Positions 4,554 to 49,092 of a stretch of DNA of 64,000 bases are shown piece after piece (within the stretch, counting starts at the first letter, position 1; every line of letters starts with the position of its first letter). The notes beneath the pieces were generated by a model. That model was not told the DNA's origin and searched no databases. It worked only from the letters and a program-made list of their open reading frames with translations. The stretch comes from a virus: the IMG/VR virus record IMGVR_UViG_3300023493_000006, positions 10,434 to 74,433 of that record. One strand, given 5' to 3'. A program made the position numbers and the translations under genes.

Positions 4554-5450
4554 ATGAAAAAATTCAAAAAACTACTGGCAGTTTTTACCATAATGTTACT
4601 GATTGTCTGTATGGCAGTTCCAGTATCGGCGGCCGGTAAAATTAACAAGAAAAAAGTCACTTTGAAAGTCGGTCAAACATTACAATTAAAAGTAACTGGA
4701 ACAAAAGGAAAAGTAAAATGGACAAGTAGCAAAAAATCTGTTGCTACGGTATCTTCTAAAGGACGTGTAAAAGCGAAAAAGAAAGGTTCCGCTACAATTA
4801 CCGCAAAGATTGGTAAAAAGAAATATACCTGTAAAGTTACTGTGAAAAAGGCTTCTAATGGCAATGGCGGTTTTGGTGGAAATCCAAATGCTAACAGCAG
4901 TGGTAAAAAGAATGTTGTTAGTTATCATGCAGAATCTACGCCGTATGGAGCTGTGGCAATTCTGGAAAACCATTATGACCATGCAGTTGATCTGACCGTT
5001 GAATTTATCTATTATCTGAATGGAACAATGGTCGGAGTTGATAAGGATTATAATTTTGCGTTTGCAGCACATTCAAAATGTGCACTTCAAGGCTGGAATT
5101 CTGATAAAACGTGGGATTCTTTTAAAATCAATTTGAATATTAAGAAAGCATCTTCAAGTGTTATAACAAATAACTCGGGAATTCATTATTCAGCCAATTT
5201 TGGAAATAGAAATGTAGTGGTAAAAGTAGATAACAATGGACGGAAAAATGCGTTTACCACTATTGCAATTGTATTTTATAAAAATGGTAGGATAGTGGGG
5301 TATGATGATCGTAATGCTGATGTAAAAAATCCAGGATCGACAGCTTATCTCGAATTTGATTTTCCATTTGATAGGAATTTCGAGGATATCATACCAGATA
5401 AATTTGAAGTATATGTAAATGATTCGTATACATATAGCTGGATGAATTAA
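4554..5450 (+). CDS. Secreted protein with a signal peptide and a bacterial Ig-like (Big_2) domain, plus an unknown C-terminal domain
   Basis: MKKFKKLLAVFTIMLLIVCMAVPVSAAG signal peptide. VTLKVGQTLQLKVTGTKGKVKWTSSKKSVATVSSKGRVKAKKKGSATITA is a Big_2 signature. RBS GGGAGGAA. Confidence 0.7.
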   Translation: MKKFKKLLAVFTIMLLIVCMAVPVSAAGKINKKKVTLKVGQTLQLKVTGTKGKVKWTSSKKSVATVSSKGRVKAKKKGSATITAKIGKKKYTCKVTVKKASNGNGGFGGNPNANSSGKKNVVSYHAESTPYGAVAILENHYDHAVDLTVEFIYYLNGTMVGVDKDYNFAFAAHSKCALQGWNSDKTWDSFKINLNIKKASSSVITNNSGIHYSANFGNRNVVVKVDNNGRKNAFTTIAIVFYKNGRIVGYDDRNADVKNPGSTAYLEFDFPFDRNFEDIIPDKFEVYVNDSYTYSWMN

Positions 5451-5488: not shown

Positions 5489-6997
5489 TCAGTTAATGTA
5501 TTCAACATCTATGCTTGGCAATGTTACTTGTTTCCCAAGAAGTGTTGTAGAATTTAATGTTCCGCTACAAGTTCCGTATACGGTTACCCAATCTCCTTCT
5601 AGGTAATGTGTTTCGCCATCCTCATAGCTATATGAACAATCCCATTTATTACCGTTTCCGTCAACAATATACAACGTATATCCACCGAATATTCCTTCTA
5701 ATGACTGATCTATTGTTCCAGAGACAACACAATGTTTTTTATCGTAACTGTCTGGATTTCTCAATATATCATTATAATCTAACGTCTGGCAAAGTGCCTT
5801 GTATTCGTCCTCTGAAACTTCTTTTGAATTAGCAACTTCTTCTGTCACTACAAAATACTGTGATAAACTATCATCTGAAGCATCCTTTTTATAGCTTTTA
5901 GCTTCATCACCTTTTGCAAATACCATACAATTCTCTAAATTTATGGAATCTCCCATAAATCCCCATGAATCTACATTTGATACTGTTCCAAGAATAGCAA
6001 CCACATCATCATCTTTAAGACCGCTTTCATATTTTGCATACAATTTACTATCAGATACATTAAAATTACTCATCATGTATTTATCACCAATAGTAACTTG
6101 CACCTTATTGTCTTTAATCTCACTTATTGTTGCTACAGTATAAATTTTAGCTCCGCTCATATTGACTGCATATTTATATAAATCGCTGTCAGTGATATAA
6201 GAATATTCACCAGAATTAAATGTTTGTAATTCATCATCAAAAGTAATTGGAGCCACATTCTGTTTTTTCTCTTCTACTGTAGGAGTTGCTTTTCTTTCGT
6301 AACTACTGGATTTTTCCGTCTGCGTTTTGGATGTATCTGCTGTTTTCTCTGTTTTAGATGAATACCAGCCAATTAGAATAAACACAAGGCAGATAAAACC
6401 AAAATAGTTTGCGCATCCCCCTTTTTTCTTTTTCTTGGTAGCTGTCGGCTGTGGCGTGTACTGTGGTTCTGGTGCAGAATATGTTTTAGGTTTTTCGATA
6501 TTCTCAATAGTTGTTCTGGTCTTGTTTGCTTCGCCCCTGTCGCAATTATCCATTACACTCTTTTCAAGCATATACCATTCAACAACATATTGTTTTTTGA
6601 AGTACCGCTCCGCAATCTCTGTTGTAAATTCTTTTGCCTGTTCATATGCGGAAGAGCCTGTTGATAAGCAAATTTTGAAAGGCTTTGCGTATTTCGGAAT
6701 TGAAAAAGCAACTTTCAACTGTACTCTCCCTAAATCGTCTGGTTCTTCTTTATCATAATTCAATACAAAATCCATAGGATTTGCTTCAAGTAACAAATTT
6801 CCTTTGTAGTAAACCTCAATATTCGCTTTTGAAGCCTTGATTCTCATGGAATCTAACATCTCAATGTCGTATTCCTTTTGCTTCTGTGGCGGTTCCTGTG
6901 TTACATTTCCCTGTGTTATCGGGAATCCACAGTTCGGGCAACTTGCCGCTTTATCACTTATTTCCTTGCCGCATTCTGGACATTTAATCAGTGCCAT
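5489..6997 (-). CDS. Membrane protein with an N-terminal cytoplasmic zinc ribbon (CPECG...CPNCG), one TM segment and a large extracytoplasmic domain
   Basis: Start chosen at MALIKCPECGKEISDKAASCPNCG (RBS GGAGGGGG). TM segment ANYFGFICLVFILIGWY. The ORF track extends 21 aa further upstream. Confidence 0.6.
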   Translation of the reverse strand: MALIKCPECGKEISDKAASCPNCGFPITQGNVTQEPPQKQKEYDIEMLDSMRIKASKANIEVYYKGNLLLEANPMDFVLNYDKEEPDDLGRVQLKVAFSIPKYAKPFKICLSTGSSAYEQAKEFTTEIAERYFKKQYVVEWYMLEKSVMDNCDRGEANKTRTTIENIEKPKTYSAPEPQYTPQPTATKKKKKGGCANYFGFICLVFILIGWYSSKTEKTADTSKTQTEKSSSYERKATPTVEEKKQNVAPITFDDELQTFNSGEYSYITDSDLYKYAVNMSGAKIYTVATISEIKDNKVQVTIGDKYMMSNFNVSDSKLYAKYESGLKDDDVVAILGTVSNVDSWGFMGDSINLENCMVFAKGDEAKSYKKDASDDSLSQYFVVTEEVANSKEVSEDEYKALCQTLDYNDILRNPDSYDKKHCVVSGTIDQSLEGIFGGYTLYIVDGNGNKWDCSYSYEDGETHYLEGDWVTVYGTCSGTLNSTTLLGKQVTLPSIDVEYIN

Positions 6998-7059
6998 AAA
7001 TATCCCCCTCCTTAGTATGATACCCATATTGTACCACCTTTGGGCGTATTCTGGAAGCA

Positions 7060-7275
7060 CTATTTCGCTTTTCTATCAATTTCCGCAGTTACGGCAAACA
7101 AAAGAGCTTCGGCAAATTTTGCTCCGACCGAATCGGAGTATTTATCGTGAATCCGGCTTGCTTCCATGGTGAGATTTTCCCACTGCGGAATATCGTCCTT
7201 TGAGATAAAAGCGTACTTCTTGTGAAGATTCCATATATCTTGCCAGATGGAAAAGTAAGTCTGCTTGAAATCCAT
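7060..7275 (-). CDS. Hypothetical protein (71 aa)
   Basis: ORF in the operon with 7275..7577. Confidence 0.4.
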   Translation of the reverse strand: MDFKQTYFSIWQDIWNLHKKYAFISKDDIPQWENLTMEASRIHDKYSDSVGAKFAEALLFAVTAEIDRKAK

Positions 7276-7577
7276 TATACGTACAACACTCCATGATATT
7301 TCTCGAGCCTATATTTCTGTTTCACATTTGGATATTTTTCACGATCTACCTCACTGTAAAACATATTTTTCGGTCTGGCGTATAATTGCTTACTGCCATA
7401 CAGGGCTTTGTATATCACTAGGTCTTCTCCTGTTTCCGTATGCCTAGCAAAACCGACAATCTCATACAGGTATTCATTGTCACGCGGATTCTCGATAGTT
7501 TCTCGCTTAAAGTGCTGTACAATATCCCCTGGCTTAAATAATTGTCTGTTCATTTTCATTGTTACCTTTCTCCACAA
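7275..7577 (-). CDS. DUF1653-like protein
   Basis: [36 protein letters not shown] matches the DUF1653 consensus (H-K-..Y.v..a.hTEt.e..VvY..Lyg...w.RP). Confidence 0.55.
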
Positions 7578-7665
7578 TTAATTAATTTCTTTGCTCAAAT
7601 TTCAATTTTCTTTGCTTGTGCCTATATTTTATCATGCGAGAAGTTTTGAAACGGATTTGATTATT

Positions 7666-8298
7666 TTATCGCAGTAATTCTTTATCAATAATCTGGAAGT
7701 TCGCCCTGTGGATATAAAGAGCTTTTCCGTCAATCATTAACTTTGTCATTTTAGGTAGATCGTCCGGGATTTTCCAGAACACCTCGTCACCAGAATATGC
7801 GGCTATGGGCTGTCCAAGTTGAGATTTAATTACTACAACCCTAGATTTTCCGAAATAATTTTTATAATAATTTAGAATCCCGGCTATGTATGCGTTCTCT
7901 GAAATCTTCCCGGTTGAATGACTGGTAATATCTTCCTGGGTAAAATCAACCTCCGGCTCCAATCCTTTTTGCTCAAAAATACAAGTATCACCACAGCTTT
8001 CAATTTCTTTACCGTCAATCAGAATTGTAATAACGGAAGATACGTCATAGCTGGTTGTTTCGTTACCCTCGCTATCGTAGCCCTTGGATTTGGTTTTATT
8101 CCCGGCAATGTTGATCTTGTCCCCAGTGGTGGTCATAACCTTTTTGCCGTAGTTATCGTAGGTATAGATTGTGTAGCTGTTTCCAGAAAGATTTCCTTTC
8201 ACGTCATTCATGTAATCGTCATTCGCTGCACAGCCTGTTAGCCCTGTGATAATGCAAATACAGGTAATTATCGCCAGTAGTGTTTTGATTCTTTTCAT
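7666..8298 (-). CDS. Lipoprotein
   Basis: MKRIKTLLAIITCICIITGLTGC lipobox. Confidence 0.65.
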   Translation of the reverse strand: MKRIKTLLAIITCICIITGLTGCAANDDYMNDVKGNLSGNSYTIYTYDNYGKKVMTTTGDKINIAGNKTKSKGYDSEGNETTSYDVSSVITILIDGKEIESCGDTCIFEQKGLEPEVDFTQEDITSHSTGKISENAYIAGILNYYKNYFGKSRVVVIKSQLGQPIAAYSGDEVFWKIPDDLPKMTKLMIDGKALYIHRANFQIIDKELLR

Positions 8299-8768
8299 GG
8301 TTTTTGTCCTCCCTCATATGTCTCATAATCAATCGTTCCCAAATCACCGTACACATCTGGATAATAAATTCCAACCCAGAAGTTATCTTCCATTGCTTTG
8401 TAGTAAGTTACTTTTACATTCCATCTCTGTACCTCGTCAACAATTTCTTTGTTTAGAAGTCCGAATTGATCTCGGCAAGCTTCACTTTCCAGTTTGTAAG
8501 TCAATGCTTTGTATTTCTCTGCATTTGCCTGTCTGGTGGCGGTAACCGTAGTCTGGCTTATTGCTAAAAGCAATCCCGCGATCAAAAGATATACCGCACC
8601 GATAAAAGCCACTGCTACGCCCAAAACAAGCACGGTTGCGCTCACATTCGAATACTCATATTCGTAGCTTAAAGATTCTCCTATTCTATTTGCAATCAGA
8701 ATAACAACGCCGACTGCAAAAATGATTATTGATAGCCAAAATATCATAGTGTGTCCTCCCTGTCCCAT
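8295..8768 (-). CDS. Membrane protein (two TM segments). Translationally coupled to the lipoprotein
   Basis: MIFWLSIIIFAVGVVILIA and VLVLGVAVAFIGAVYLLIAGLLLAI segments. ATGA overlap with the downstream gene. The true start is probably at MIFW. Confidence 0.5.
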   Translation of the reverse strand: MGQGGHTMIFWLSIIIFAVGVVILIANRIGESLSYEYEYSNVSATVLVLGVAVAFIGAVYLLIAGLLLAISQTTVTATRQANAEKYKALTYKLESEACRDQFGLLNKEIVDEVQRWNVKVTYYKAMEDNFWVGIYYPDVYGDLGTIDYETYEGGQKP

Positions 8769-8840
8769 TCTGCGTCAGATTTATCTGACATAATAATATC
8801 GTTAGATATTATTTAAATATAATTCTTTCTCTTTTTCTTA

Positions 8841-8940
8841 ATCTAAATCTATATCTAAATCTATATCTAAATCTATATCTAAATCTATATCTAAATCTAA
8901 ACCTTAATCTGAGTGCGTCTACTATGCGTCTTTTGTGCGT
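8841..8940. repeat. Iteron array: ATCTAAATCTAT x4.5 tandem 12-mers plus a GAGTGCGTCT..TGCGTCTTTTGTGCGT tail. Homologous to intragenic repeats at 48541-48660
   Basis: Perfect tandem 12-mers read directly. Same ATCTAAATCT / ATCTGAGTGCGTCT / TGCGTCTTTTGT motifs occur inside the replisome organizer gene. Confidence 0.8.
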
Positions 8941-9063
8941 TTAAAAAAATAAGAACTCTAAATTCGTCATTTTTATATTATATTTCACCAAAATTCAACT
9001 TGTAAAAATACATATTTTATCTGTTATGCTGATTTTTACGGATTTTTGTGTCGAAATAAAATT

Positions 9064-9241
9064 CTTATTTATTTCTTATTTAACGCTTATTTTTTCTTAT
9101 TTGATGCAAAATAAAAAATTATTTTACCTTAAATTAAAACTTGTTTTTCCTTATTTGCTCCCTATTTAATTCTTATTTACTATCATTAATAGTAAAATAA
9201 GGTCTTATTTGAGCAATTTAATTTTCAGATAAAGCCTTATT
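9064..9241. repeat. Eight direct copies of the heptamer CTTATTT (plus one CCTATTT) in an AT-rich noncoding stretch. Second iteron family of a candidate origin
   Basis: CTTATTT at 9064, 9075, 9086, 9097, 9150, 9172, 9204 and 9235 (approximate), all in the same orientation. Confidence 0.6.
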
Positions 9242-9254
9242 TTACCGAAATTAA

Positions 9255-9551
9255 TTATTCAAACAAGCTAAATACGTCTTTGCAAAATTCCTCATAGTCG
9301 ATATTCCCGACCAGTGGCATTTTATTTCTCAGCTTTTCCATTGCTTTAAAAAACTTTCCTTGGTCTTTATTCCAGATTTTACAGAAAACAAGAAGATACT
9401 TCTCTTCCTTATGTCCATATTCTTTTCCAAAATTCACCCGAATTTTCTCATTCTTAAAAAGTTGGTCTGCCAGATACTCTTCTGTATCTGCAAAAATGTA
9501 TTCGCTGCGGAATAAATGCTTTTGGATTAAGATGTAATTTTTATATGACAT
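9255..9551 (-). CDS. Hypothetical protein (98 aa)
   Basis: ORF with no recognisable motif. Confidence 0.4.
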   Translation of the reverse strand: MSYKNYILIQKHLFRSEYIFADTEEYLADQLFKNEKIRVNFGKEYGHKEEKYLLVFCKIWNKDQGKFFKAMEKLRNKMPLVGNIDYEEFCKDVFSLFE

Positions 9552-9637
9552 GATATTCCTCCCTGTGAAAAAGGTTCCATTTTAAATCGAACCTTTCCAG
9601 ACCTCATTTTAAATGCGGGCTGTCTAAAAATTCAAAA

Positions 9638-10309
9638 TTATGCCGCAATTTTATTAAGAAAATCTTCTATTTCTTCATAATTCCATCCATTACATATTAA
9701 TGCGCCAGCAATTTCAGTTAATTGTTTTATTTTTAAATTTTGCTCATCAGATAAATAAAATCTAAAACTTGTAAATTTCTTTGGTTTGTATTTTTTTACA
9801 AGGCTTTCCGTGTTTCCACCTAATACAATTTGGTATATCAAGTCAGAATAAATATTTGGCTCGTCAAGACCTTTTACGGCATTGGTGAATTTTTCAATTT
9901 CTTTATTCTCATTTGATAATCTTATATATTCTTCAACAGACGAATTAGTTAAGCCCAAAATTTTTTGGGAAATTTCCAATACTCTTTCTTTTACAGAATT
10001 AGCATATTCTTTTTTGATTGAACGCATTTCTTCTTCGGAAATATATTCGCCTATCTTATGTATGGTTTCATCAATTAAATTCAAATCAACAAAAGAAAAC
10101 CACTCTCCACCAATTCTGTATTTCTGGAACAACTTATGAAGCTTATTTTCTACAAAATATGGATTTTTTAAATAATTGCTTTCATAAATTATTTTTGAGA
10201 AAGGGAGACCACATGATACTTGTGCAAGCCTTTTTTCAACGCATTGGCTTGTCCCTATTTTATATTTTTCTTCATGTTTAAAAACGTAAATCTTTTTAAA
10301 ATTTTCCAT
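9638..10309 (-). CDS. T5orf172 (MUG113/GIY-YIG-like) domain protein
   Basis: Start MENFKKIYVFK (RBS GGGGAGG). IYVFK...YKIGTS..VEKRLAQ...VENKLHKLFQKYRIGGEWFSF matches the T5orf172 consensus (YKIG(T/S)...R......H..L...R..GEWF). Confidence 0.6.
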   Translation of the reverse strand: MENFKKIYVFKHEEKYKIGTSQCVEKRLAQVSCGLPFSKIIYESNYLKNPYFVENKLHKLFQKYRIGGEWFSFVDLNLIDETIHKIGEYISEEEMRSIKKEYANSVKERVLEISQKILGLTNSSVEEYIRLSNENKEIEKFTNAVKGLDEPNIYSDLIYQIVLGGNTESLVKKYKPKKFTSFRFYLSDEQNLKIKQLTEIAGALICNGWNYEEIEDFLNKIAA

Positions 10310-10462
10310 CAAGTTGTTTTCCTCCCCAAAATAAAAAAGAGCCGCCAAGTAAGATAAAAATTCCTCAAAATTGAGAAATATTAATTTCTTCTTAGCGGCT
10401 CAAAAATCAAAACCGTGTGTACTTCTTCATTAAAGAAATCATACCACACAATCAGTCAAAAA

Positions 10463-13400
10463 TCAATATGCCGGGGACGGTTTGAAACGGCTATCTGTAT
10501 CATTTTGGGCTTTTGTTACTGCTTTTGCAATCTCGCTTCCGTCCAGAATAATGCTATTCATAATGTACTGCGGATTGTTATTTCCGCTGTTCATACTCAT
10601 TGCCATTGCAACGCCCTGTGCTACTGCTTTTGCCATTTCTTCTTTTGTAAGTCCCATGCTTCCGTCCGAACTGGAAACAATGCTGTCTGCAATCTTCTTC
10701 ATGGTTCGTGGATTTTCCAGCGGAAGGACGGCTTCAGAACCGGCTTCACCGATACCGATTACCTGTGCGCCGTTGAAAAGACCACCTTTGGCGTACCAAT
10801 TAGGCTTGTAAACTGGTGTAGAACTAGTTCTTCCACCACCAAGATCATGTTTTCTCCACTCTGAAATATAATAAGTTAGAGTTGGTAAATGTACTTGTTT
10901 CATGCCATCAGCGAATGATTGAGCAGTTTCCCGACCAATTGATGTAAGATTAACATTAAATAGCCTTTTAATTTTATCCGAAATCCCAGACAAATTAGAT
11001 TCTGTGTAGGTTTTCATTTTCCCAGTTTCCGTGTCAACTTTACCAGAAGCCTTTTCCCAAATCTGGTTTGTATTGATTAGAACAGAAGACCAATAGCTTT
11101 GAATGGTGGTCATAACCTTACCCATTATATCTTTGGTATCGGTATCCATGGTTCCGAGGGCTGTCGATACAGCACTTGCGGAATTTCCCCAGTTTGTTTT
11201 GGAGTTGGTTTCAACATCATCATTCGTGTTCTTTATCTTTGACCAAATGGAAGGCATTGTGCTTTCTGTGCTTTTTTTCATTCCAGCCATTGCCGTGCTT
11301 ACAGCTGCACTGGCTATTCCAAAACCAGTCTTAGAGTTTGAAGAAATGGATTTCGTAGCTGTTTCCACTGATTTGCTCATTGTTGATGAAGATTTTGGAA
11401 CATCTTCTGAAAAAGCTTTAATAACTTTTCCTGTGTCAATTCCCATCTCTGCCATTTTATCCATCAAGGCTTGGAATGCGGCTCTGGCTGTTGCACCAGA
11501 TGATTCTTGTTGCTGAAGGACAGCACTTAATTCATCAAACTGCGTTGGAGTGATTACCGCTTGATTTGAAAGTCTTTCTAATGCAGATTTCGCATTATCA
11601 AATTCTGTCCCCATCGTACCGATATATTCATTAATATTACTTACATGAGAATTTGTAGAAGTATCGGATTCTTCCATTGCCTGTTTTAATGCTTGCTTAA
11701 ATGTATCGGAAGAAATTCCAAGATTTTCAAGTGATGTTTCTACAGTTTGGAGCTGTCCATCAAAATCAAATGCATTGTCTTTCACATTTTTTAAATCACC
11801 GCCAAGACCGATAAATTTATCCCCGGAAATTCCAGTTTGGTCTTCAAGGATTTTTAATGCTTTTCTAACAACTTCAAAATCGTTGAATGCGTCAGCTGTG
11901 GAGTCTTTAAAGTCCATAGCTTTTTTTACCTGTCCAAGACCTTCCATGACAAATGCAGTTGCGCCCAAATTTGTTGCGTATCCCCAAAATCCTTGGAATT
12001 GTCCACCAGCTGTTTGTGCGACGTCACCAAGATTTTTTATCTTTTCAGCAAGGGTAGTAAATCCTCCATTTCCTGCGGATTCTGCCGCATCCCCTAAATC
12101 TTTTATTGCTTCTTTTGCTCCACTCGTGCCATCTCCAAGGACATCTGCTAATTTTTCAGCAATGAGATCAGCATTTTCTTTGGCAATAATTTTTCCGCCA
12201 ATGTGATCAATAAGGTTCCATGCAAGTTCTCCAATTCCGCTTACTTTAAGAACATTTACGACAAGAAAGGCTTTTCCAAGAATATCAACAAGACTTCCAA
12301 CAAGCGGATGGTCTTCTTTTATTCCGTCCACCAATCCGTTAAAAGCACTTGATAAGCCTCCTAGAATCAAATCAGCCGCAGTACCAAGGATTTCACCCCA
12401 TGGTAACTCACCAAGGAACGTTCCAACGCCTTGTCCAAATTCATAAAAAGTGTCTTTGGTGAGAGAATCTTTTAATGCTGTACACAAATGAGATATAAAA
12501 TCTCCAAGAGCCTGTCCATTTTCTTTCCAGTTTGTTTCTTTGATGAATTTAGCGATTCCATCTCTTATCTTGGTTGCGAGATCATCCCAATTAAATGTTT
12601 CTGTAAATGATTTTAAGCTTTCGAACGCTCCGTTTAATAAACCAGAAAGTGCATCTGCAATTGTGTTCATGTCTATCTTTTTGATTGCACCATTTAAGGC
12701 TTTTCCAATAGCAGTGCCAAGCTTACCCCATCCAGTAATTCCAGCACCATCTTTTTTAGACATATCCTTTACAAAGCCAGAAAGCATTTTCCAAGATGCC
12801 ATAAAACTGTTTCCGATTAAGGTTCCAAGACCTGTCCAGTCAATTTCCTTTATAGCTCCTTTTAAAAGTTGAGACAGTTTTGCCCCTATTCCAGAAAAAT
12901 CTATTCCTCCATCTCCAAGCAACAGGTTTAGAGTATTTACTGCTGTGTTAATTCCAGATCCAAGCATTCTTCCAATTAAGTCGAAATCAATTCCGCTAAC
13001 CATGGAATTAAATGCTGTTGTAAATGCATTTACAAATTCGGTTATTTTCGGGCCAACATTATTCCAATTAATAACTTCATATATTTTTTGCATTCCGACA
13101 TTTATCATGTCTGCAATAGTGGAACCTAGTCCCTGCCAGTCTTTATTGATAAATGCTTTTCTGATTTTAGCAGCCCATTTATTAATTGGTGTTTCGTCAA
13201 CAGTCAAAACTTCATCCAGTGAATCTTGTATTCCAGCAAAACTATCTGCTAAATCTCCAAGCCCAGAACCAAGACTTTTAGATGCAGTTCCAGAATTATC
13301 AGAATTATCGGCAAGCTGATTTAATTGGTCGAATGGCAATACAGAAAGTGCCTTTTTCAGTTTCTTAGCAGATGATGTAGCGTCATCAAGACCAGAAGAT

Positions 13401-15127
13401 GCGTCATCACCAGCTGTTTCTATACCACCTAAATTAGATACGATATCACTAACTCCACTCTGCGAGCCTTTTAGTTTCTTTCCCATCAATACATACATGA
13501 AGTTGCGAAATGCATTTGCGGCTTGCATAAGTTTTGACATGAGCGCATTAAGTGCTTGAATAGCCGGGAGAATTCCAGCGATTAAACCTTGCCCGATTAC
13601 TGCAGAAAGTGACTGGAAGTTCAAGGTAAGCAAACGAACCTGGTTCGCCCATGTTCCAGATGTCCTTGCGAAATCCCCTTGCACATCTCCTGTAACTGAC
13701 ATTAAATAGTTGTATCGAAGAGCAACTTTTTCAGCTTGGGACATTGCGTTATAAGATGTTGTAATTCCCCTTGAAAGAGCATAAGCCTCCATATTTGCAA
13801 CGGATAAATTAATTCCCAATTGTCTTAAAGGCTCAATTTCCCCAGAAATTCCAGAGCGTATTTTCTGAAAAGCTGTATCAGTATCAATATTGTAAAATGA
13901 TGCAATATCCCCGGCTAATCCAGCAAGAGAAATTGACATTTTAGAAGCTGCATCTTGCGCAACACCAGACGATTTCATCATTGCCATCATGGTTCCAGAA
14001 TATTGCTTTGCTGCCAATTCGGATAATCCAAATTGTTCTTTGGCCGTAGAAGCAAATTTGTAGGCTTCATCTGCCATGCTTCCAAAGGAAACATCTACAA
14101 CATTTTCGATTTCTGTAATAGCAGAGCCAAAACCAATTGCACTTTTTCCTAAATTTGCCAGACCACGAATAGCCTTAAAACCGATAGCAGTTTTAAGCAA
14201 ATTTCCGAGATTAAAAGAAGCGGTTTTAATTCCAGAACTACTATTCCCGAGACGTTGAAACCATCCAATAATGCCTTTTACCCCGGTTCCAATTATAGAA
14301 GAAGTTTTACTAACAATATTACCAAGGCTAGATGTTGCAGATGATAATTTAGAAAACGCACTGGATATAGAATTTGTAGCGGAATTTACCTTTCCCCCTG
14401 CATTAGCCAACTTTGCCAGTGCTTCCGTCATGCGGATGGTGTTCTCACTTATTTTAGGTGCAGTTTTCATTACATCGAAGAAAGACAATACTTCCTTTGC
14501 TAGTGTTCCAAGCTGGCTTGACGTTTGTCCGATTCTATTTCCAGAGCTTGCCAATTGTGCAATAGACTGAACTAACCTATTTACAGGTTCAGATATATCG
14601 CCAACGCTCGTAAAACTCTCTACGATTGATTTAAGATTTCTTCCAAGCCCAGGCAATTCAGCTGATACATTCGCAATATATTCACCGGAATTGGCTAATC
14701 TAGCCATTGAATTGACAAAGCGATTAACACCGGAAGATACATCTGGAATCTCTGTCAAATTGCTTAATTTATGGATTATTTCTCCGAGTTTTCCTGTGTC
14801 AAAACTGCTTATATCAACCTGGCTAAGTCTATTGATTGAGTTAATAACCGCATTAAGGCCAGAACCTTTATAGTTTACGCCACCCATTGTCTTTATGGAA
14901 TTTGAGAATTTTCCAATTCCAACAGCAATGCTTGTCATTTTCCCTATATCAAGTTCTTTTAGTTTTCCAAGTTCCCTTACACAACTACGTAATCCGTTTG
15001 TATTAACTCCGCTTAATGCGGAATTAACTTCTGTGAGTTTATTTGAAAGATTAGTCAGCGCACGTACTGCTTTTTCTGTACTACTGCTAATTTGTATATC
15101 AAGGGTATCAATGGTATTGTCAGCCAT
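10463..15127 (-). CDS. Tail tape measure protein (1554 aa)
   Basis: Very long alpha-helical, low-complexity protein following the chaperone genes. Strong RBS AGGAGGG. Typical TMP position and composition. Confidence 0.85.
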   Translation of the reverse strand: MADNTIDTLDIQISSSTEKAVRALTNLSNKLTEVNSALSGVNTNGLRSCVRELGKLKELDIGKMTSIAVGIGKFSNSIKTMGGVNYKGSGLNAVINSINRLSQVDISSFDTGKLGEIIHKLSNLTEIPDVSSGVNRFVNSMARLANSGEYIANVSAELPGLGRNLKSIVESFTSVGDISEPVNRLVQSIAQLASSGNRIGQTSSQLGTLAKEVLSFFDVMKTAPKISENTIRMTEALAKLANAGGKVNSATNSISSAFSKLSSATSSLGNIVSKTSSIIGTGVKGIIGWFQRLGNSSSGIKTASFNLGNLLKTAIGFKAIRGLANLGKSAIGFGSAITEIENVVDVSFGSMADEAYKFASTAKEQFGLSELAAKQYSGTMMAMMKSSGVAQDAASKMSISLAGLAGDIASFYNIDTDTAFQKIRSGISGEIEPLRQLGINLSVANMEAYALSRGITTSYNAMSQAEKVALRYNYLMSVTGDVQGDFARTSGTWANQVRLLTLNFQSLSAVIGQGLIAGILPAIQALNALMSKLMQAANAFRNFMYVLMGKKLKGSQSGVSDIVSNLGGIETAGDDASSGLDDATSSAKKLKKALSVLPFDQLNQLADNSDNSGTASKSLGSGLGDLADSFAGIQDSLDEVLTVDETPINKWAAKIRKAFINKDWQGLGSTIADMINVGMQKIYEVINWNNVGPKITEFVNAFTTAFNSMVSGIDFDLIGRMLGSGINTAVNTLNLLLGDGGIDFSGIGAKLSQLLKGAIKEIDWTGLGTLIGNSFMASWKMLSGFVKDMSKKDGAGITGWGKLGTAIGKALNGAIKKIDMNTIADALSGLLNGAFESLKSFTETFNWDDLATKIRDGIAKFIKETNWKENGQALGDFISHLCTALKDSLTKDTFYEFGQGVGTFLGELPWGEILGTAADLILGGLSSAFNGLVDGIKEDHPLVGSLVDILGKAFLVVNVLKVSGIGELAWNLIDHIGGKIIAKENADLIAEKLADVLGDGTSGAKEAIKDLGDAAESAGNGGFTTLAEKIKNLGDVAQTAGGQFQGFWGYATNLGATAFVMEGLGQVKKAMDFKDSTADAFNDFEVVRKALKILEDQTGISGDKFIGLGGDLKNVKDNAFDFDGQLQTVETSLENLGISSDTFKQALKQAMEESDTSTNSHVSNINEYIGTMGTEFDNAKSALERLSNQAVITPTQFDELSAVLQQQESSGATARAAFQALMDKMAEMGIDTGKVIKAFSEDVPKSSSTMSKSVETATKSISSNSKTGFGIASAAVSTAMAGMKKSTESTMPSIWSKIKNTNDDVETNSKTNWGNSASAVSTALGTMDTDTKDIMGKVMTTIQSYWSSVLINTNQIWEKASGKVDTETGKMKTYTESNLSGISDKIKRLFNVNLTSIGRETAQSFADGMKQVHLPTLTYYISEWRKHDLGGGRTSSTPVYKPNWYAKGGLFNGAQVIGIGEAGSEAVLPLENPRTMKKIADSIVSSSDGSMGLTKEEMAKAVAQGVAMAMSMNSGNNNPQYIMNSIILDGSEIAKAVTKAQNDTDSRFKPSPAY

Positions 15128-40592: not shown

Positions 40593-41341
40593 GTTATCAC
40601 CTCACTTTAACACGTTAATTTACAAATAAAAAAGAGAATGTCACCGGGTAAAGCTTATTCCCGGAAGGCTTCCGGGTGTTCGGGTACATTCTCTAAAACT
40701 CAAATTAAAAAAATATTCTGTTTTCTTTGTTGCTGATACCTTAGCACAGTTTTTAATATCTTGTCAAATTTAATTTTGCATAAAATAAAACCATCTATTT
40801 TGTCAATAATTAATAAATAATAACTGGGGTATTATATTATAATCTTTATTTATATTTATATCTTATATATTATTATACGGTACTGTATAGCATATCTTTT
40901 AATAAACTCCAGCTTTAGGAATCTAGGAAGGGCAGAGAATAGTTATATAATTATATATAATATAAGGGCGGCTACATTTTCATAGATTTGCATAATAAAA
41001 GCCAGACCTTCCAGGAGTTTCTATCCGGCGTGATCTGGCTTGTTATGCGTGTTATTTAATTAACGATTCTGTGTACTTTCAGCCTCTGCCCTTCCTGAGT
41101 TCCGTCAGCTCTCGTTATCTGATAGCCTAAAGAAGTTTTAGAAAAATGTCAAGCGGTATTTTAAAAATATTTTTCTTGACAATTTGCTAAAAACTGTGTT
41201 ATTAAAATATTAACAGGCTCGGCGGCGGTCTGTACTCTGTCCATAGCCGCCACAAATAAGTATTTTAAAGCCCTAGGAATTAATCCCGGGGCTTTTTCTT
41301 TGGCTTGTATTATCTATTATTGTGTATTTCGTACAAGTCTA

Positions 41342-44463: not shown

Positions 44464-45144
44464 TCAGTCGTTGTTCCCATTCACGCTCTCCTTGTTAATC
44501 TTCTGATTCCTGGTTTCAAAATTTATAATCTTCGTGTCTGTTTCTAATTCTTCCGGGATTCTTCCAACAATGATAACTCGCAGTGGCTTCAATCTCCGTT
44601 CCATCTCCTTGAAACCAACGCAAAATTCCAACCGTGCCGCCTTGCTCTTTACTCTTCCATTGGTGCAACAGGAAACTGTACTTCCCTCTGGTAGCCCATC
44701 AAAGCACCAGTCCCAACAGTATTCCGGTAATATGCTTACGTTCGGAATTACCGGAATATCATTCAAGATCATGTAGTGAGCCAGTGCATGATTGCGGTAT
44801 TTATTCCACAGGCACATTACCAGTGGCATTCCATTCTTGCCAACCGATATGCTAAAATCTGGCATAATGACTGCATGAAAACATTTTAAATGCTCCATAT
44901 ACTTGTCTGGCTGATTCCATAATCTTTGAAACTGCACATCGTCTACGTAGAAGTTTACATCCAGTTCCCAGTGGTTCTTAATCTTTCGGCTGAAGCTCTC
45001 CGCAAAGTCTACAGTATCTTTTCCAGGATGGATAAAGGTCTTTGGAATTTTCGGTATTCCGTAATTACCATCAAGGTCTGCATCCGTGATTAAAAACTCT
45101 TTCATTACGTCATAAGCTGTATGTATCATTGATTCCACTCCCAT
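44464..45144 (-). CDS. Hypothetical protein (226 aa), downstream of the serine recombinase
   Basis: ORF. Cys/Trp-rich central region (CWDWCFDGLPEGSTVSCC). Confidence 0.45.
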   Translation of the reverse strand: MGVESMIHTAYDVMKEFLITDADLDGNYGIPKIPKTFIHPGKDTVDFAESFSRKIKNHWELDVNFYVDDVQFQRLWNQPDKYMEHLKCFHAVIMPDFSISVGKNGMPLVMCLWNKYRNHALAHYMILNDIPVIPNVSILPEYCWDWCFDGLPEGSTVSCCTNGRVKSKAARLEFCVGFKEMERRLKPLRVIIVGRIPEELETDTKIINFETRNQKINKESVNGNND

Positions 45145-45152
45145 TTTTTCTC

Positions 45153-46865: not shown

Positions 46866-46946
46866 AGTGCATTTCTCCCTTAATAAACAGGGAGTGGAAT
46901 CATATAAAGTATAACACCTCATATAAATCCACTCAATACATTGTCG

Positions 46947-47132
46947 TTACTTTCTAATGCTGATTTCAGCTTTAATTTTATCTCTTGTTTTCTCATCTAT
47001 CAGACCAAGTGAGAACATTCTTTCGTTTATGGCATACAATATAGCTTTTTCCATTAATTGTCCCTCCATATAATTATCTCGTTTTAAACGCTGTTTTTCT
47101 TTATCTTTTGTATGCCCTATAATTTCTACCAT
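46947..47132 (-). CDS. Hypothetical small protein (61 aa)
   Basis: ORF. Confidence 0.35.
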   Translation of the reverse strand: MVEIIGHTKDKEKQRLKRDNYMEGQLMEKAILYAINERMFSLGLIDEKTRDKIKAEISIRK

Positions 47133-47183
47133 TATTCTCTTTTGAACGATTCTGTGCTATTTTAAATACACAATTATCACGTT

Positions 47184-47396
47184 TTACAACAAATCAAAGA
47201 TATTGACCTGTCCATCAATCTGAGATTCTTCCAGATTATAAAATTTGCAAGCTATATAATCTGGATTCCAATCAATTTCCAGTTCGTATTGCAAGCACCT
47301 TGGAAATTTGCCACCATAGAAGAATCTGCAATCAGAACAGGTATGCTGATAAACTGTACCGCCAGATTGCTTATACATTTCGCTTATCTTTCTCAT
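47184..47396 (-). CDS. Cys-rich small protein (70 aa)
   Basis: CSDCRFFYGGKFPRC...CKF. Confidence 0.4.
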   Translation of the reverse strand: MRKISEMYKQSGGTVYQHTCSDCRFFYGGKFPRCLQYELEIDWNPDYIACKFYNLEESQIDGQVNIFDLL

Positions 47397-47635
47397 AGAA
47401 TCACTCGCTTTACTCTTGACTTTCCTCTCGCTTTCTTCTTGAAGATACCATTTTTAACACAATCCCTTGGATCACATCCTCTGCTATGTTCTTCAATCAA
47501 GATATAATCACAGGTTGCATTTGTACTCCATGCATTTTCGCTCTTGCTGTAATAGTCGCATTTCGAGCATTGTCTCCGCTTTAAGACTATAATTTCAGTG
47601 CTTTTTAATTCTCTCCATGGTTTTCTATCTGGCAA
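47393..47635 (-). CDS. Cys-rich small protein (80 aa)
   Basis: CSKCDYY...CDY...GCDPRDC. Confidence 0.4.
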   Translation of the reverse strand: MPDRKPWRELKSTEIIVLKRRQCSKCDYYSKSENAWSTNATCDYILIEEHSRGCDPRDCVKNGIFKKKARGKSRVKRVIL

Positions 47636-48165
47636 TTTTCAGCACCTCCCAATCTGGCAGTATCTATAATTTTTAAAAGGTCTGGACTTAGTTTTCTTCG
47701 TTCTTGTTCTCTTTGCACTTCTGCCCGATACGTCCTTTGAAAATTTGATTGAACTACACTCCACCATGTACCATCTGCATTTTCAGATACCGCCCATTCT
47801 CTAAGTTGTGCCGGACTTGATACTGCTTTCTGAATGATTTTTGGAAGCTTATCAAACTCTGTTTCTGCGTTATATGTAGAGTTCTGAATAGCTTTGCATA
47901 CCTTTTCCCAGGCTTCTGTTTCATTCAGCTCTTCCTTTTGCGGTGCAACGCTTTGTGCGCATTGCCTTAATGCGGCTATTGATGGCTCTTTCCATTCCGT
48001 CTGCATATATTTCTTTAATCCGAAACTTAAAAGCTTGTAATCCAGGTCTTTCAGTAATCCGTACCAAGTATCAAAAGCATATTGATCTGGCAGAAATGCT
48101 GGGGAAGTGTACACAGCTTTCATTGCCTTTACCAGTACCGCCCATTCTTCTCTTGTCATACCCAA
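47605..48165 (-). CDS. G39P-like replicative helicase loader
   Basis: MTREEWAVLVKAMKAVYTSPAFLPDQYAFDTWYGLLKDLDY...EPSIAALRQCA parallels the G39P N-domain pattern. Directly downstream of the replisome organizer. Confidence 0.45.
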   Translation of the reverse strand: MGMTREEWAVLVKAMKAVYTSPAFLPDQYAFDTWYGLLKDLDYKLLSFGLKKYMQTEWKEPSIAALRQCAQSVAPQKEELNETEAWEKVCKAIQNSTYNAETEFDKLPKIIQKAVSSPAQLREWAVSENADGTWWSVVQSNFQRTYRAEVQREQERRKLSPDLLKIIDTARLGGAENCQIENHGEN

Positions 48166-49070
48166 TTATCCACCTCGCTTACCCTGTTTTGGATTTTCTC
48201 CATGTAGCTTTGCGGTTTACTTCCGGCTTTATCAAGATAGTTCCCTTCAAATACCTTCGCAAAGTTACCGGGCTTTAAGAACCAATCGAAAGTTATCATC
48301 CAGCCTTCTTTGTTCTGGCCTTGTAAGAAGCTGCTATGGCGAATGTTTTCAATAGCTTCTAAGATATCGTCCATATGGTTCTGACGGATTCTGGCTTTCA
48401 CTGCTTGTTCTCGTTTTGATGTCATTCTTTTTACAGGATTAATACCAAATTCTTCCAGAGTATTCCATTCATCAATGATTCGTTGGACGTCAGTCTGACG
48501 AATAGTATCTTTAGATACTATTAAATCATTTATATCTTTTTCTTTATCTTTATCTAATTCTATATCTAAATCTAAATCTAATTCTAAATCTTTATCTAAA
48601 CCTATATCTTTATCTGAGTGCGTCTTTTGTTCGTCTATTTTGCGTCTTTTCTGCGTCTGCCTGTTTGAACGCTCTATTAGTTTGGTATCATCAATAGAAT
48701 TTCCATTTGTCAGTGAGTAACTTCCGTTATCTTTCAATAGCAGTTTCTTTTTTTCGTCAGTGTATGAAGTTTCTATATATCTGTCTCTAGACAGGGTGTT
48801 GTGCATTCTCCAATGCTTAATAACAATCACGCCATCATCAAATAAGATAACAAATCTCTTGGCAATCAGAAGCTTCAAATCATCATCATTTGCACCTATT
48901 ATTTTTTCAATCCTCTTTGGGTTTCCAATAAATCCATCATCATCAGCTCGCATATTTAAATGAAAATAAAGGCATTGTGTTGATAATGGCATATCAAGAA
49001 AAGCGTCTGTATCAACAATTTTCATGGTAAACATTCTTTTATTTGCCAATTCTAAAATTCCTTTCTCCAA
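48156..49070 (-). CDS. Phage replisome organizer with internal DKDLELDLDLDIELDK iteron-encoding repeats
   Basis: N-terminal LSTQCLYFHLNMRADDDGFIGNPKRIEK (phage_rep_org_N-like). Repeat DNA at 48541-48660. Confidence 0.65.
   Translation of the reverse strand: MEKGILELANKRMFTMKIVDTDAFLDMPLSTQCLYFHLNMRADDDGFIGNPKRIEKIIGANDDDLKLLIAKRFVILFDDGVIVIKHWRMHNTLSRDRYIETSYTDEKKKLLLKDNGSYSLTNGNSIDDTKLIERSNRQTQKRRKIDEQKTHSDKDIGLDKDLELDLDLDIELDKDKEKDINDLIVSKDTIRQTDVQRIIDEWNTLEEFGINPVKRMTSKREQAVKARIRQNHMDDILEAIENIRHSSFLQGQNKEGWMITFDWFLKPGNFAKVFEGNYLDKAGSKPQSYMEKIQNRVSEVDNWV
48541..48660. repeat. Intragenic iteron region (ATCTAA/ATCTTT hexamer-based repeats ending ATCTGAGTGCGTCT..TGCGTCTTTT). Candidate phage origin
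   Basis: Direct repeats read in the sequence. Homologous to 8841-8940. Confidence 0.6.
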
Positions 49071-49092
49071 TTCCTGGCTTTTTCAAAAGTGT

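Follow-up and report, generated by a model that had tools for sequence, protein, structure and literature searches.

In an uncultured, ~80-kb phage of the human gut, a gap among the tail genes holds a 170-base non-coding copy of the origin core found inside the phage's own replisome-organizer gene. We analyzed a 64,000-nt stretch of this genome (hereafter the window) and, judging from its sequence and from the analogy with Bacillus phage SPP1, read positions 8774–8942 as a second, non-coding origin core with a probability of roughly 0.6: this orphan copy would be the counterpart of SPP1 oriR, and the intragenic copy that of oriL. Comparison with relatives suggests that the orphan is in use by the phage and, across the genomes compared, it is an optional cassette that only part of the phage population carries.

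The similarity between the two copies is an extended alignment, not a low-complexity chance match. Window positions 8774–8942 and 48488–48658 agree at 126 of 159 nt (79%) on the same strand, with a local score of 150 compared to 22±8 (maximum 32) for all other 400-nt window segments on both strands, and the alignment continues about 65 nt past the repeats, into both palindromes. A preliminary description of the window had proposed that the ori-like repeats of the organizer gene recur in the gap as an orphan copy; alignment of 8770–9254 with the 48-kb locus bears this out, and the motifs it listed lie where it had placed them. Both copies are built alike, with two small palindromes (IR1 and IR2), an AT-rich 6-mer tract, and three to four TGCGTCT boxes at 11-bp spacing (Table 1), and the orphan comprises exactly the origin core, ending sharply at IR1 and at the last box. 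The copies are ~40 kb apart in the ~80-kb genome (about 49%), i.e., nearly opposite each other. Cumulative GC skew falls steadily over the window, with a small reversal at about 42–44 kb and no inflection at 8.9 or 48.5 kb.

Table 1 Features of the gap, its neighbouring genes, and the organizer locus (window coordinates).
Feature	Position	Strand	Details
Membrane-protein gene	8295..8768	-	Immediately downstream of orphan core; first gene of accessory set 5489–8768
Orphan IR1	8774..8789	.	Palindrome GTCAGAT-TT-ATCTGAC
Orphan IR2	8792..8813	.	AATAATATC-GTTA-GATATTATT
Orphan T-rich spacer	8814..8840	.	TAAATATAATTCTTTCTCTTTTTCTTA; homologous to 48523–48550 by alignment
Orphan AT-rich 6-mer tract	8841..8906	.	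ATCTAA/ATCTAT, 12-mer x ~5.8
Orphan boxes (putative)	8914..8942	.	TGCGTCT 8914, TGCGTCT 8925, degenerate TGCGTTT 8936; 11 bp spacing
AT-rich spacer	8943..9063	-	GC 0.21; differs between relatives; one inverted CTTATTT 8947–8953
CTTATTT module	9064..9242	+	Direct copies 9064, 9075, 9086, 9096, 9150, 9172, 9204, 9236; inverted 9195
Genes right of gap	9255..10348	-	98-aa gene 9255–9551; T5orf172/MUG113 gene 9638–10348
Putative helicase-loader gene	47605..48165	-	phrog_2289 'helicase loader' E=7.6e-8 (weak); phrog_9804; directly downstream of organizer gene
Replisome-organizer gene, T allele	48156..49070	-	PHROGs 5708, 8489, 10469, 1163, 345
Intragenic origin core	48488..48658	.	IR1, IR2, 6-mer tract, four boxes
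Intragenic IR1	48488–48500		CGTCAG-T-CTGACG
Intragenic IR2	48501–48522		AATAGTATCT-TT-AGATACTATT
Intragenic boxes	48619, 48630 (TTCGTCT), 48641, 48652		11 bp spacing

Differences between the two copies leave the palindromes intact. Orphan IR1 contains a 6-nt insertion relative to the intragenic copy, but this insertion is itself symmetric, so the palindrome is retained and lengthened; in IR2, a left-arm G>A is paired with a right-arm C>T, a compensating substitution. As single-stranded DNA, IR1 and IR2 fold in both copies into twin hairpins (z = -4.2 to -4.8). Orphan and organizer boxes have a 7-mer in common while their inter-box spacers differ, so the match between the two loci is not merely the product of recent conversion. 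Neither the palindromes nor the SPP1 oriL/oriR precedent had figured in the preliminary description.

Tandem Repeats Finder describes the orphan 12-mers as an array at 8841–8910 (period 12, 5.8 copies, 94% matches), with four perfect and about two imperfect copies in any single register, for which an earlier count of five was fair rounding. The 6-mer tract goes back to the linker-coding D-L-D-L repeats in the organizer gene, and we propose that it serves as a DNA-unwinding tract. The 12-mers are probably not protein-specific iterons, as first supposed: the tract is common to all organizer types, and its 6-mer count varies among relatives from 8 to 17. As putative binding sites for the organizer N-terminal domain we propose the boxes, the third of which reads TGCGTCT in most relatives and TGCGTTT in the window. 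One frame of the orphan is still gene-like (THSD.GLDLDIDLD...EKEKE), interrupted by stop codons, and the L129 orphan is crossed by a longer ORF.

The organizer ORF matches replisome-organizer/DnaD-like PHROG families (E=1e-61) and, as previously read, encodes linker repeats on the minus strand (...KTHSDKDIGLDKDLELDLDLDIELDKDKEKD...); the intragenic 6-mer tract beside the boxes encodes DKDLELDLDLDIELD. Its product consists of an N-terminal domain (about residues 1–137), presumed to be the origin-binding domain, followed by an acidic repeat linker and a C-terminal domain common to all alleles. Against 12 diverged homologues, the 30-nt bin with the highest conservation in the gene is the one containing IR2 (0.93 vs. 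0.54–0.76 in the C-domain flank). Close relatives carry three organizer alleles, in which N-domains are swapped while the C-domain, IR1, IR2, and the 6-mer tract are common. Their boxes are TGCGTCT (T allele), GTTACWGTAA (G allele), and TTTACYGTWA (O allele), and the 6-mer tract is unchanged across box types; by this pattern of sequence, it is the 11-bp-phased boxes rather than the 12-mers that appear to confer specificity.

The T-allele organizer of the window yielded no match to Pfam PF09681 (Phage_rep_org_N, the G38P N-terminal domain), and the G and O alleles, found at the same position in relatives, match this family with 126 bits (cut-off 23.3). PHROGs 1163 and 10469 are all that the T allele has in common with the G/O alleles, and BLASTP found no similarity between T and G N-domains. 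The organizer had no match among PDB sequences; at the DNA level, its N-domain is ~68–72% identical to 'DNA replication protein' genes of Lactococcus, Streptococcus, and Enterococcus phages. The putative helicase loader had no Pfam match, and no helicase family (Pfam, PHROG) was found among the six larger ORFs scanned in 44464–50833.

The orphan is dispensable, since only 17 of 80 close relatives carry it; in the whole of IMG/VR, the IR2 variant specific to it is present in exactly 44 contigs. Orphan boxes are of two types, TGCGTCT (T) or GTTACTGTAA, with the left half otherwise identical. Where both loci could be typed, T orphans accompany T organizers in seven contigs (one of these a box-less T allele) and G orphans accompany G organizers in three, with no T/G mismatch, i.e., orphan box type equals organizer type in 10/10 T/G cases. 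The remaining two typed orphans (080999, with T boxes, and 066951, with G boxes) accompany O organizers and show no decay. This association between box and organizer type (Freeman-Halton p=0.004; 2x2 p=0.008, values that are optimistic because many contigs share one metagenome and hence are not independent) is not found for the eight neighbouring island gene blocks, none of which is associated with organizer type (p=0.16–1.0). No O-box orphans were seen, though O organizers make up ~1/3 of the population. One contig (092171) has an organizer gene without boxes and IR2, and none within 8.8 kb, together with an intact orphan whose 6-mer tract is among the longest seen; its diagnostic 23-mer is unique to this contig, and no further box-less organizers were found.

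Conservation of the orphan extends beyond its boxes. The 72-nt non-coding left part, which includes the T-rich spacer, shows 0–2 mismatches between diverged haplotypes, next to a gene with 75–83% third-position identity between them; this membrane-protein gene diverges by up to 15% between haplotypes, and the adjoining orphan core does not. In a lineage whose organizer is only ~70% identical, an orphan occupies the same position; it is closer to organizer copies (score 120 against its own, 98 against the window's) than to the window's orphan (58). Outside these relatives, GTDB (one genome per species) contained no match to the orphan boxes (exact scan) or to the tape-measure protein, and GenBank phages gave only distant matches (Blautia, Faecalimonas, and R. 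gnavus phages) plus short human-faecal fragments.

These patterns are difficult to reconcile with an inert recombination scar, one of the possibilities raised in the preliminary description, by which a fragment of the organizer gene was captured in a hyper-variable island and hitch-hikes there, its repeats changing by slippage. A captured fragment need not have sharp ends at IR1 and the last box, maintain its palindromes, or conserve its box motif between inter-box spacers unlike those in the organizer gene; nor would its box type be expected to match an organizer 40 kb away when neighbouring genes do not, or its position to be the same in the ~70%-identity lineage. The near-invariance of the left part beside a gene with 17–25% third-position divergence points the same way, with the caveat that it could instead reflect recent spread of the cassette via recombination, not purifying selection. 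The setting of the orphan is nonetheless one in which a scar might arise: the gap sits in an accessory-gene island bounded by the tape-measure gene on one side and the distal tail genes on the other, this island shows extreme mosaicism across relatives, and homing-type nuclease genes (HNH or T5orf172) flank the orphan, with an HNH-endonuclease gene abutting the core in some relatives instead of the 98-aa and T5orf172 genes. In addition, the phage encodes RecT, which favours exchanges between short homologies; the gene-like frame with its stop codons is consistent with a captured fragment, as is the absence of the orphan from most relatives. Weighing box matching, conservation beside a diverged gene, compensated palindromes, and the box-less organizer, we consider a scar very unlikely.

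Homing of the HNH or T5orf172 nucleases to the orphan was rejected because most relatives are without the orphan. Elsewhere in the window, stop-codon recoding in 1–3.8 kb was likewise rejected, this region being one long ORF that runs past the window end.

Box matching, orphan conservation, compensated palindromes, and the one box-less organizer are the reasons for which we favour a second origin or organizer site, a role that had been suggested earlier together with that of a phage-plasmid-type ori. The latter is unsupported: no partition or plasmid-type Rep genes were seen in the phage, unlike in plasmid iteron control systems, and it encodes a large serine recombinase.

At a second origin core, we infer binding, melting, and either firing or fork arrest, as follows. 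The organizer quite probably binds the orphan: the N-terminal domain would occupy the three TGCGTCT boxes, whose 11-bp spacing puts them on one helix face. The ATCTAA tract and twin palindromes would then melt, and the helicase would be brought to them by the constant C-terminal domain together with the loader (47605–48165), allowing the orphan to act as an auxiliary origin. Whether it fires in this way is somewhat doubtful, though a reasonable possibility; that it is mainly a fork barrier or control site seems rather less likely. Occupied but not firing, the orphan could be an organizer-bound obstacle to forks arriving from the intragenic origin, as has been suggested for oriR of SPP1 when theta replication gives way to concatemer replication.

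Additional boxes for the organizer could also act negatively, a possibility that the preliminary description had named. By titrating the organizer or by handcuffing the intragenic origin, they would limit re-initiation as P1 incA iterons and similar plasmid loci do; alternatively, they would sequester the organizer of a co-infecting relative (incompatibility or exclusion). The orphan shares its boxes and their orientation with the origin and lies on the same molecule, it is dispensable, and its box type agrees with that of the organizer. Where the organizer is of the non-matching O type, the orphan could be understood as a decoy against other phages, and the SPP1 model includes occupancy of oriR by the organizer without firing (PMC3485210). 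Titration needs boxes alone, however, whereas the palindromes (through compensating changes) and the AT-rich tract have also been kept, and three boxes in a single copy would form a weak sink. Moreover, the genome with the box-less organizer gene would be left without any origin. A control or decoy site is, in our view, unlikely.

The right half of the gap contains a second repeat family, CTTATTT, whose roughly eight copies had already been noted. We counted eight direct copies at 9064–9242 and two inverted copies (8947 and 9195), i.e., 10 of the 29 window matches within 296 nt, compared to 0.34±0.58 expected from local base composition (maximum 4 in 20,000 simulations). With a period of 10.75 bp (resultant 0.99), the direct copies all face the same side of the helix, an arrangement equalled by none of 20,000 random sets, and the repeats are conserved in relatives where the adjoining spacer is not. 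Within this phage group, the module occurs only beside orphans and is optional there. We propose that it is an optional architectural add-on (curved DNA or a cooperative-binding platform), not the organizer's site. Outside the group, the phased triple gave only scattered matches in AT-rich giant-virus and other contigs, which we take as chance and which give no hint of a binding protein. Two associations were tried and rejected: the module is not restricted to T-box orphans (G-box orphans have it too), and it is not part of a T5orf172 cassette (the 98-aa and T5orf172 genes occur without it).

The position of these repeats raises a different explanation, in which the gap would chiefly supply a promoter and leader for the membrane-protein and lipoprotein genes (5489–8768, minus strand). 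CTTATTT would then provide phased upstream curvature or activator sites, and the ori-like copy might be an operator through which early organizer protein switches the genes in lytic growth. The best sigma-70-like match in the region (-35 TTTACA, 9006–9001; -10 TATAAT, 8982–8977; 11/12) points toward the orphan core and the membrane-protein gene, which would place the core in the predicted leader, with the CTTATTT copies phase-locked upstream and better conserved than the spacer. This match is a lead only, because the 12 promoter-like sites in the region are no more than shuffled sequence gives (11.4 expected), and it is not conserved in G-box relatives, in which the spacer (8943..9063) is poorly conserved. 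Relatives also express the same genes without an orphan or CTTATTT module, short-form orphans abut the HNH gene with no promoter region between, and conservation of the palindromes and AT tract would be left unexplained; we find regulation of the accessory operon highly improbable as the purpose of the gap. A terminator scan of the same region found none, and an Rfam search over 8200–9700 gave chance-level matches only. The membrane-protein gene likely starts at an internal Met at about 8747, with GGGAGGA before the start.

To our knowledge, SPP1 is the only case in which the part played by a second organizer-binding site has been worked out, and oriR function there is still a model. It is conceivable, though improbable, that the orphan travels through a recombining phage population as a portable 'origin cassette', next to genes for homing-type nucleases and uncoupled from the organizer gene, acting as a back-up or replacement origin when matched and in piracy or competition when mismatched. 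If so, a matched orphan would permit loss of the intragenic origin, as in contig 092171, and a T or G orphan accompanying an O organizer would let the phage use for its own replication, or else sequester, the organizer that a co-infecting relative or resident prophage supplies. Mismatch would thus amount to origin piracy or inter-phage competition in replication initiation, and the phase-locked CTTATTT copies would be a site for a second factor.

About 200 near-identical genomes provide a natural genetic series, which includes phages with and without an orphan, two orphan box types, three organizer specificities, and one box-less organizer gene. This series makes the part that confers specificity, the role of the orphan (origin, barrier, or decoy), and the uncoupling of origin from initiator directly testable. 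From the series, each of three organizer N-domain types can also be given its probable recognition boxes, which would help origin prediction in uncultured Firmicutes phages.

A dual oriL/oriR arrangement is already known from SPP1 (PMC6316719), and G38P binds both oriL and oriR in vitro (PMC5737612). In the SPP1 sequence, nt 373–441 of gene 38 (35950–36018) match non-coding 4878–4948 (oriR) at 83% over 71 nt in the same orientation; the aligned segment consists of the boxes and linker-coding repeats, and oriR lies beside accessory genes inside the late region. The window phage is similar in that phased boxes and short AT-rich linker-coding repeats lie inside the organizer gene, with the linker-derived tract adjoining the boxes, and in that a second copy, shorter, non-coding and of the same orientation, has beside it accessory genes that break up the run of late structural genes. 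SPP1 gene 38 falls in the same annotation class as the window's organizer gene. Both phages have a helicase-loader gene (putative in the window phage) after the organizer gene and RecT-type recombination genes, and the G and O organizers of relatives belong to the Pfam family of G38P (PF09681). Unlike in SPP1, the T-allele N-domain has no PF09681 match, the boxes are unrelated (TGCGTCT vs. AAAAGACAC in SPP1), and the copies are ~40 of ~80 kb apart rather than 13 of 44 kb. Two palindromes form part of the core here, the orphan is optional in the population and comes in two box types, and an extra phase-locked CTTATTT module is present. SPP1 has a DnaB-type helicase gene, for G40P, next to its loader gene, whereas here none was found among the six larger ORFs scanned beside the organizer.

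In phage lambda, ori lies inside gene O, where the gene encodes the inter-domain linker; it combines iterons, bound by the N-terminal domain of the initiator, with an adjacent AT-rich region, and the O C-terminal domain recruits the helicase loader. The organizer C-domain matches PHROG 345 ('replication initiation O-like'), though the N-domains of the two proteins are not detectably homologous and lambda, unlike the window phage, has a single origin with no orphan copy. Lactococcus phages of the P335 group (Tuc2009, phi31) have direct-repeat origins in or beside a replication gene, and a plasmid into which one of these origins is cloned titrates replication factors, a form of phage-encoded resistance (Per). 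Per involves a multicopy plasmid in the host, whereas in the window phage the second copy is on the phage itself. P1 incA and F incC are additional repeat arrays, bound by the initiator, that share a replicon with the origin but lie apart from it; they have no unwinding region and act negatively through titration or handcuffing; unlike incA-type iteron loci, the orphan retains its AT-rich tract and both hairpin-forming palindromes.

The orphan, a non-coding copy (8774-8942) of the putative origin core whose other copy (48488-48658) lies inside the replisome-organizer gene, is best read from its sequence and distribution as a second origin element resembling oriR of phage SPP1. The repeats that the preliminary description had reported from this gap are present: a 12-mer array (also referred to here as the 6-mer tract, for its ATCTAA/ATCTAT units) and eight copies of CTTATTT. 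Box repeats phased at 11 bp follow the array. Tandem Repeats Finder delimited the array to 8841-8910 (5.8 copies, 94%); in any single register, four of its ATCTAAATCTAT units are perfect and roughly two are imperfect. On the plus strand there are eight copies of CTTATTT (9064-9242), and two more are inverted (8947, 9195), amounting to 10 of the 29 matches in the window, while 0.34±0.58 copies are expected from the local base composition (maximum 4 in 20,000 simulations). The likeness of the gap to the organizer gene, also claimed previously, proved to be a true alignment: with both on the same strand, the score of 8770-9254 with 48400-48800 was 150, versus 22±8 (maximum 32) for every other 400-nt window segment on both strands. 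Identity was 126/159, and the alignment extends beyond the repeats through two small palindromes (IR1 and IR2), with sharp ends at IR1 and at the last box. The organizer frame does encode the acidic linker quoted in that description.

Coordinates of the main features in the window
Feature	Position	Strand	Remarks
Gap holding the repeats	between 8295-8768 and 9255-9551		flanked by a membrane-protein gene (8295-8768, -) and a 98-aa gene (9255-9551, -)
IR1, orphan	8774-8789
IR2, orphan	8792-8813
Orphan boxes	8914, 8925, 8936		TGCGTCT, TGCGTCT, degenerate TGCGTTT; 11 bp apart
Tape-measure gene	10463-15127		1554 aa
tRNA cluster	35209-36223	-	Ser-TGA, Met-CAT x2, Gln-TTG
Large serine recombinase	45153-46922	-	589 aa
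Organizer ORF	48156-49070	-	replisome-organizer / DnaD-like PHROG families, E=1e-61
IR1, organizer gene	48488-48500
IR2, organizer gene	48501-48522
RecT	63066-63935

Read on the minus strand, the window is a single strand-coherent phage genome, with replication genes, the large serine recombinase, four tRNAs, terminase, portal, capsid and tape measure located downstream of RecT. The C-terminal part of the organizer matches the PHROG annotation 'replication initiation O-like', and the frame after it (47605-48165) weakly matches 'helicase loader'. Immediately downstream of the replication genes are a DUF4417 nuclease-like gene and the serine recombinase (together 44464-46922, minus strand). The phage is probably temperate, but host flanks were never seen on the relatives, which in the data examined are ~80-kb permuted contigs. 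AT-rich tandem repeats with periods of 7, 8 and 18 occupy an intergenic region at 40805-40994, possibly an early or lysogeny control region, and adjoin the only plus-strand gene block (41.9-43.4 kb). No relative was found among GTDB species-representative genomes, and GenBank phages gave only distant or fragmentary human-faecal matches; IMG/VR contains ~200 close relatives (186 found via the tape measure, 211 via the DUF4317 gene adjoining the organizer). Many of their contigs are 77-85 kb long and show the same gene order from differing start points, which suggests a circular or circularly permuted genome of ~80 kb. Where a contig holds both core copies, the arcs between them, computed from coordinates, are 39-43.5 kb, and the copies would lie nearly opposite each other if these contigs are whole genomes.

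Since the tape measure lies on one side and a large tail gene on the other, we interpret 4.5-10.4 kb, with the gap inside it, as an island of accessory genes between the tape-measure and distal tail genes. The minus-strand frame of that tail gene is open from 3855 to the window start, so a gene of >1280 aa runs off the left end. The island is strongly mosaic among relatives. The right side of the orphan core is occupied either by an AT-rich spacer, a CTTATTT module and a 98-aa gene (followed in the window by a T5orf172 gene), or by a 405-aa HNH-endonuclease gene abutting the boxes. Between the tape-measure stop codon and the orphan, the slot is thus filled by T5orf172/MUG113 and 98-aa genes or by the gene for a ~400-aa protein whose N-terminal domain is an HNH endonuclease (window 8950-10400; IMG/VR relatives L012 4863-6080 and L129 1487-2692); both alternatives are homing-nuclease-like genes at a recombination hotspot. 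The tape measure itself is 1650 aa in L012 (6343-11295), its middle being replaced relative to the window and both ends conserved. Relatives lacking the orphan carry other cassettes at the same spot, some starting with an int-alpA RNA motif. This motif (RF02996) was observed just downstream of the 98-aa gene (L202 8104-8173 and 10567-10639; L222 8003-8070, int-alpA/RAGATH-18 sites), with a RAGATH-18 RNA (RF03064) a few kb beyond it in one orphan-less relative; neither motif occurs in the window.

Among 80 relatives in which the organizer gene was identified after DUF4317, each organizer combines one of three N-terminal domains with a common C-terminal domain. The window's T allele (n=31, including one four-box gene whose N-domain was untyped by the motif test) has four T[GT]CGTCT boxes, the G allele (n=23) has GTT[AT]C[TA]GTAA boxes and the O allele (n=25) has TTTAC[TC]GT[TA]A boxes; one further T allele has lost its boxes, IR2 and most of the linker by deletion. 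PHROGs 1163 and 10469 are common to T, G and O organizers. The G and O N-domains fall into Pfam PF09681, to which SPP1 G38P belongs, and the T N-domain has no Pfam match and no BLASTP similarity to the G N-domain. IR1, IR2 and the 6-mer tract are common to all boxed alleles. The preliminary description had treated the 12-mers as the ori-like repeats, and they are indeed copied in the orphan, but the boxes are the likely specificity elements, because they switch with the presumed DNA-binding domain and the 6-mer tract does not. The three alleles thereby give probable recognition motifs for three organizer types (TGCGTCT, GTTACWGTAA and TTTACYGTWA). The core is also constrained at the DNA level within the organizer gene: against 12 diverged homologues, the 30-nt bin with IR2 is the most conserved of the gene (0.93), compared with 0.54-0.76 for the adjacent C-domain coding sequence. 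Boxes of the GTTACTGTAAC type in 11-bp phase also occur in unrelated IMG/VR phages, where, judging coding status by eye, some are apparently coding and follow linker-like repeats (L278, L280, L283, L298, L304) and others lie in apparently non-coding repeat regions (L279, L290, L300, L307, L312). TGCGTCT-like phased boxes were likewise seen in GC-rich phages (L183, L184, L192-L195), and both types seem to be widespread organizer sites.

The orphan was present in 17 of 80 relatives fetched via the tape-measure C-terminus (10 T-box, 7 G-box). We consider it non-essential, because it is missing from about four-fifths of them (63/80). A complete scan for the orphan-specific IR2 recovered 44 contigs with one orphan each (22 T-box, 22 G-box) and no third box type, including no O-box orphan. 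All orphans have the same left half, including the IR2 variant AATAATATC-GTTA-GATATTATT, which differs from the organizer form (AATAGTATCT-TT-AGATACTATT) by G>A in one arm and a matching C>T in the opposite arm. In the orphan, IR1 is lengthened by a symmetric insertion of 6 nt. Twin hairpins are predicted in single-stranded DNA of both copies (z -4.2 to -4.8), and the number of units in the 6-mer tract varies between 8 and 17. The third box of the window's orphan (8936-8942) reads TGCGTCT in those three-box T-box relatives whose orphans were aligned or inspected in full, and its TGCGTTT is apparently a substitution found in this genome alone.

Comparison among relatives suggests that the orphan is in use. 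Organizers were typed blind to box type via the DUF4317 set and orphans from complete scans. Seven of eight T-box orphans accompanied T organizers (one of them box-less) and three of four G-box orphans accompanied G organizers, the remaining one of each being paired with O. There were no T/G mismatches (Freeman-Halton p=0.004; p=0.008 for T and G alone in a 2x2 table), on contigs that are not independent and come mostly from one metagenome. The G-orphan/O-organizer pair may not be a real mismatch, as G and O boxes have the same core, TTACTGT. Genome-wide linkage does not explain the matching, since in the 21 contigs for which both loci were retrieved none of eight neighbouring island gene blocks was associated with the organizer's type (p=0.16-1.0). 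Nor does recent copying between the loci account for it, because the spacers between boxes differ (ACTA, TTTG in T orphans; TTTG, ATTT, TTTC in the T organizer; 7-mer identical) and the right flanks are unrelated.

The box-less T allele occurs on contig 3300045988_092171 (L394 4145-4957; L079), a single case in IMG/VR. Its organizer (271 aa) keeps an intact frame with linker, boxes and IR2 deleted, and no boxes or IR2 were found within 8.8 kb of it; the contig carries a complete T-box orphan, whose 6-mer tract is among the longest observed. Should initiation require boxes, the origin of this phage would be the orphan. The 72 non-coding bases at 8769-8840 show 0-2 differences between haplotypes, compared with 85-89% identity in the adjoining membrane-protein gene (75-83% at third positions), though a recent spread through recombination, and not purifying selection, could be the cause of this near-invariance. 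In a further lineage, with just ~70% identity in the T organizer, an orphan occupies the equivalent position (tape measure, HNH gene, orphan, homologues of island genes); it is more like organizer copies (score 120 against its own, 98 against the window's) than like the window's orphan (58). GC skew was uninformative on origins.

In this phage group the CTTATTT module occurs only beside orphans, T-box or G-box, and some orphans lack it. The eight direct copies all share a single face of the helix (period 10.75 bp, resultant 0.99, reached by 0/20,000 random placements). Among G-box relatives, conservation is good in the module but not in the spacer separating it from the boxes; both an 11-nt deletion and a substitution creating a new copy preserve the phase. 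The module may be curved DNA or a cooperative-binding platform, serving the origin or a promoter. The top promoter-like match, at 9006-8977 on the minus strand, is neither conserved nor statistically distinguished.

The orphan could act as an auxiliary origin, a fork barrier or a control site. For a purely negative role, the nearest model is provided by extra iteron arrays such as P1 incA, which have no unwinding element. An origin in the linker-coding part of the initiator gene is a design that this phage has in common with lambda (ori inside gene O) and with lactococcal P335 phages; we are aware of no second copy carried by those phages. SPP1 is the direct precedent for a second copy. Its G38P binds both oriL, inside gene 38, and the non-coding oriR, each with direct repeats accompanied by an AT-rich unwinding region; the oriR segment and three accessory genes break up the late genes, and oriR-bound G38P has been proposed to stall forks and so switch replication to concatemer synthesis (PMC6316719, PMC3485210, PMC5737612). 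Our direct sequence check found 83% identity over 71 nt, in the same orientation, between nt 373-441 of SPP1 gene 38 and 4878-4948. The common segment consists of three AAAAGACAC-type boxes and then repeats of the AACAATGA type, which code for an NNNDNNENNDN linker within the gene. The anatomy of phased boxes, linker-coding repeats and a second non-coding copy is the same, although our phage differs from SPP1 in its unrelated box sequences, longer copy (~170 nt), two extra palindromes and wider separation. While SPP1 had already made the two-copy design known, the population evidence is new: it indicates that the element is optional, matched in box type to the organizer allele and able to coexist with an organizer gene stripped of its own boxes.
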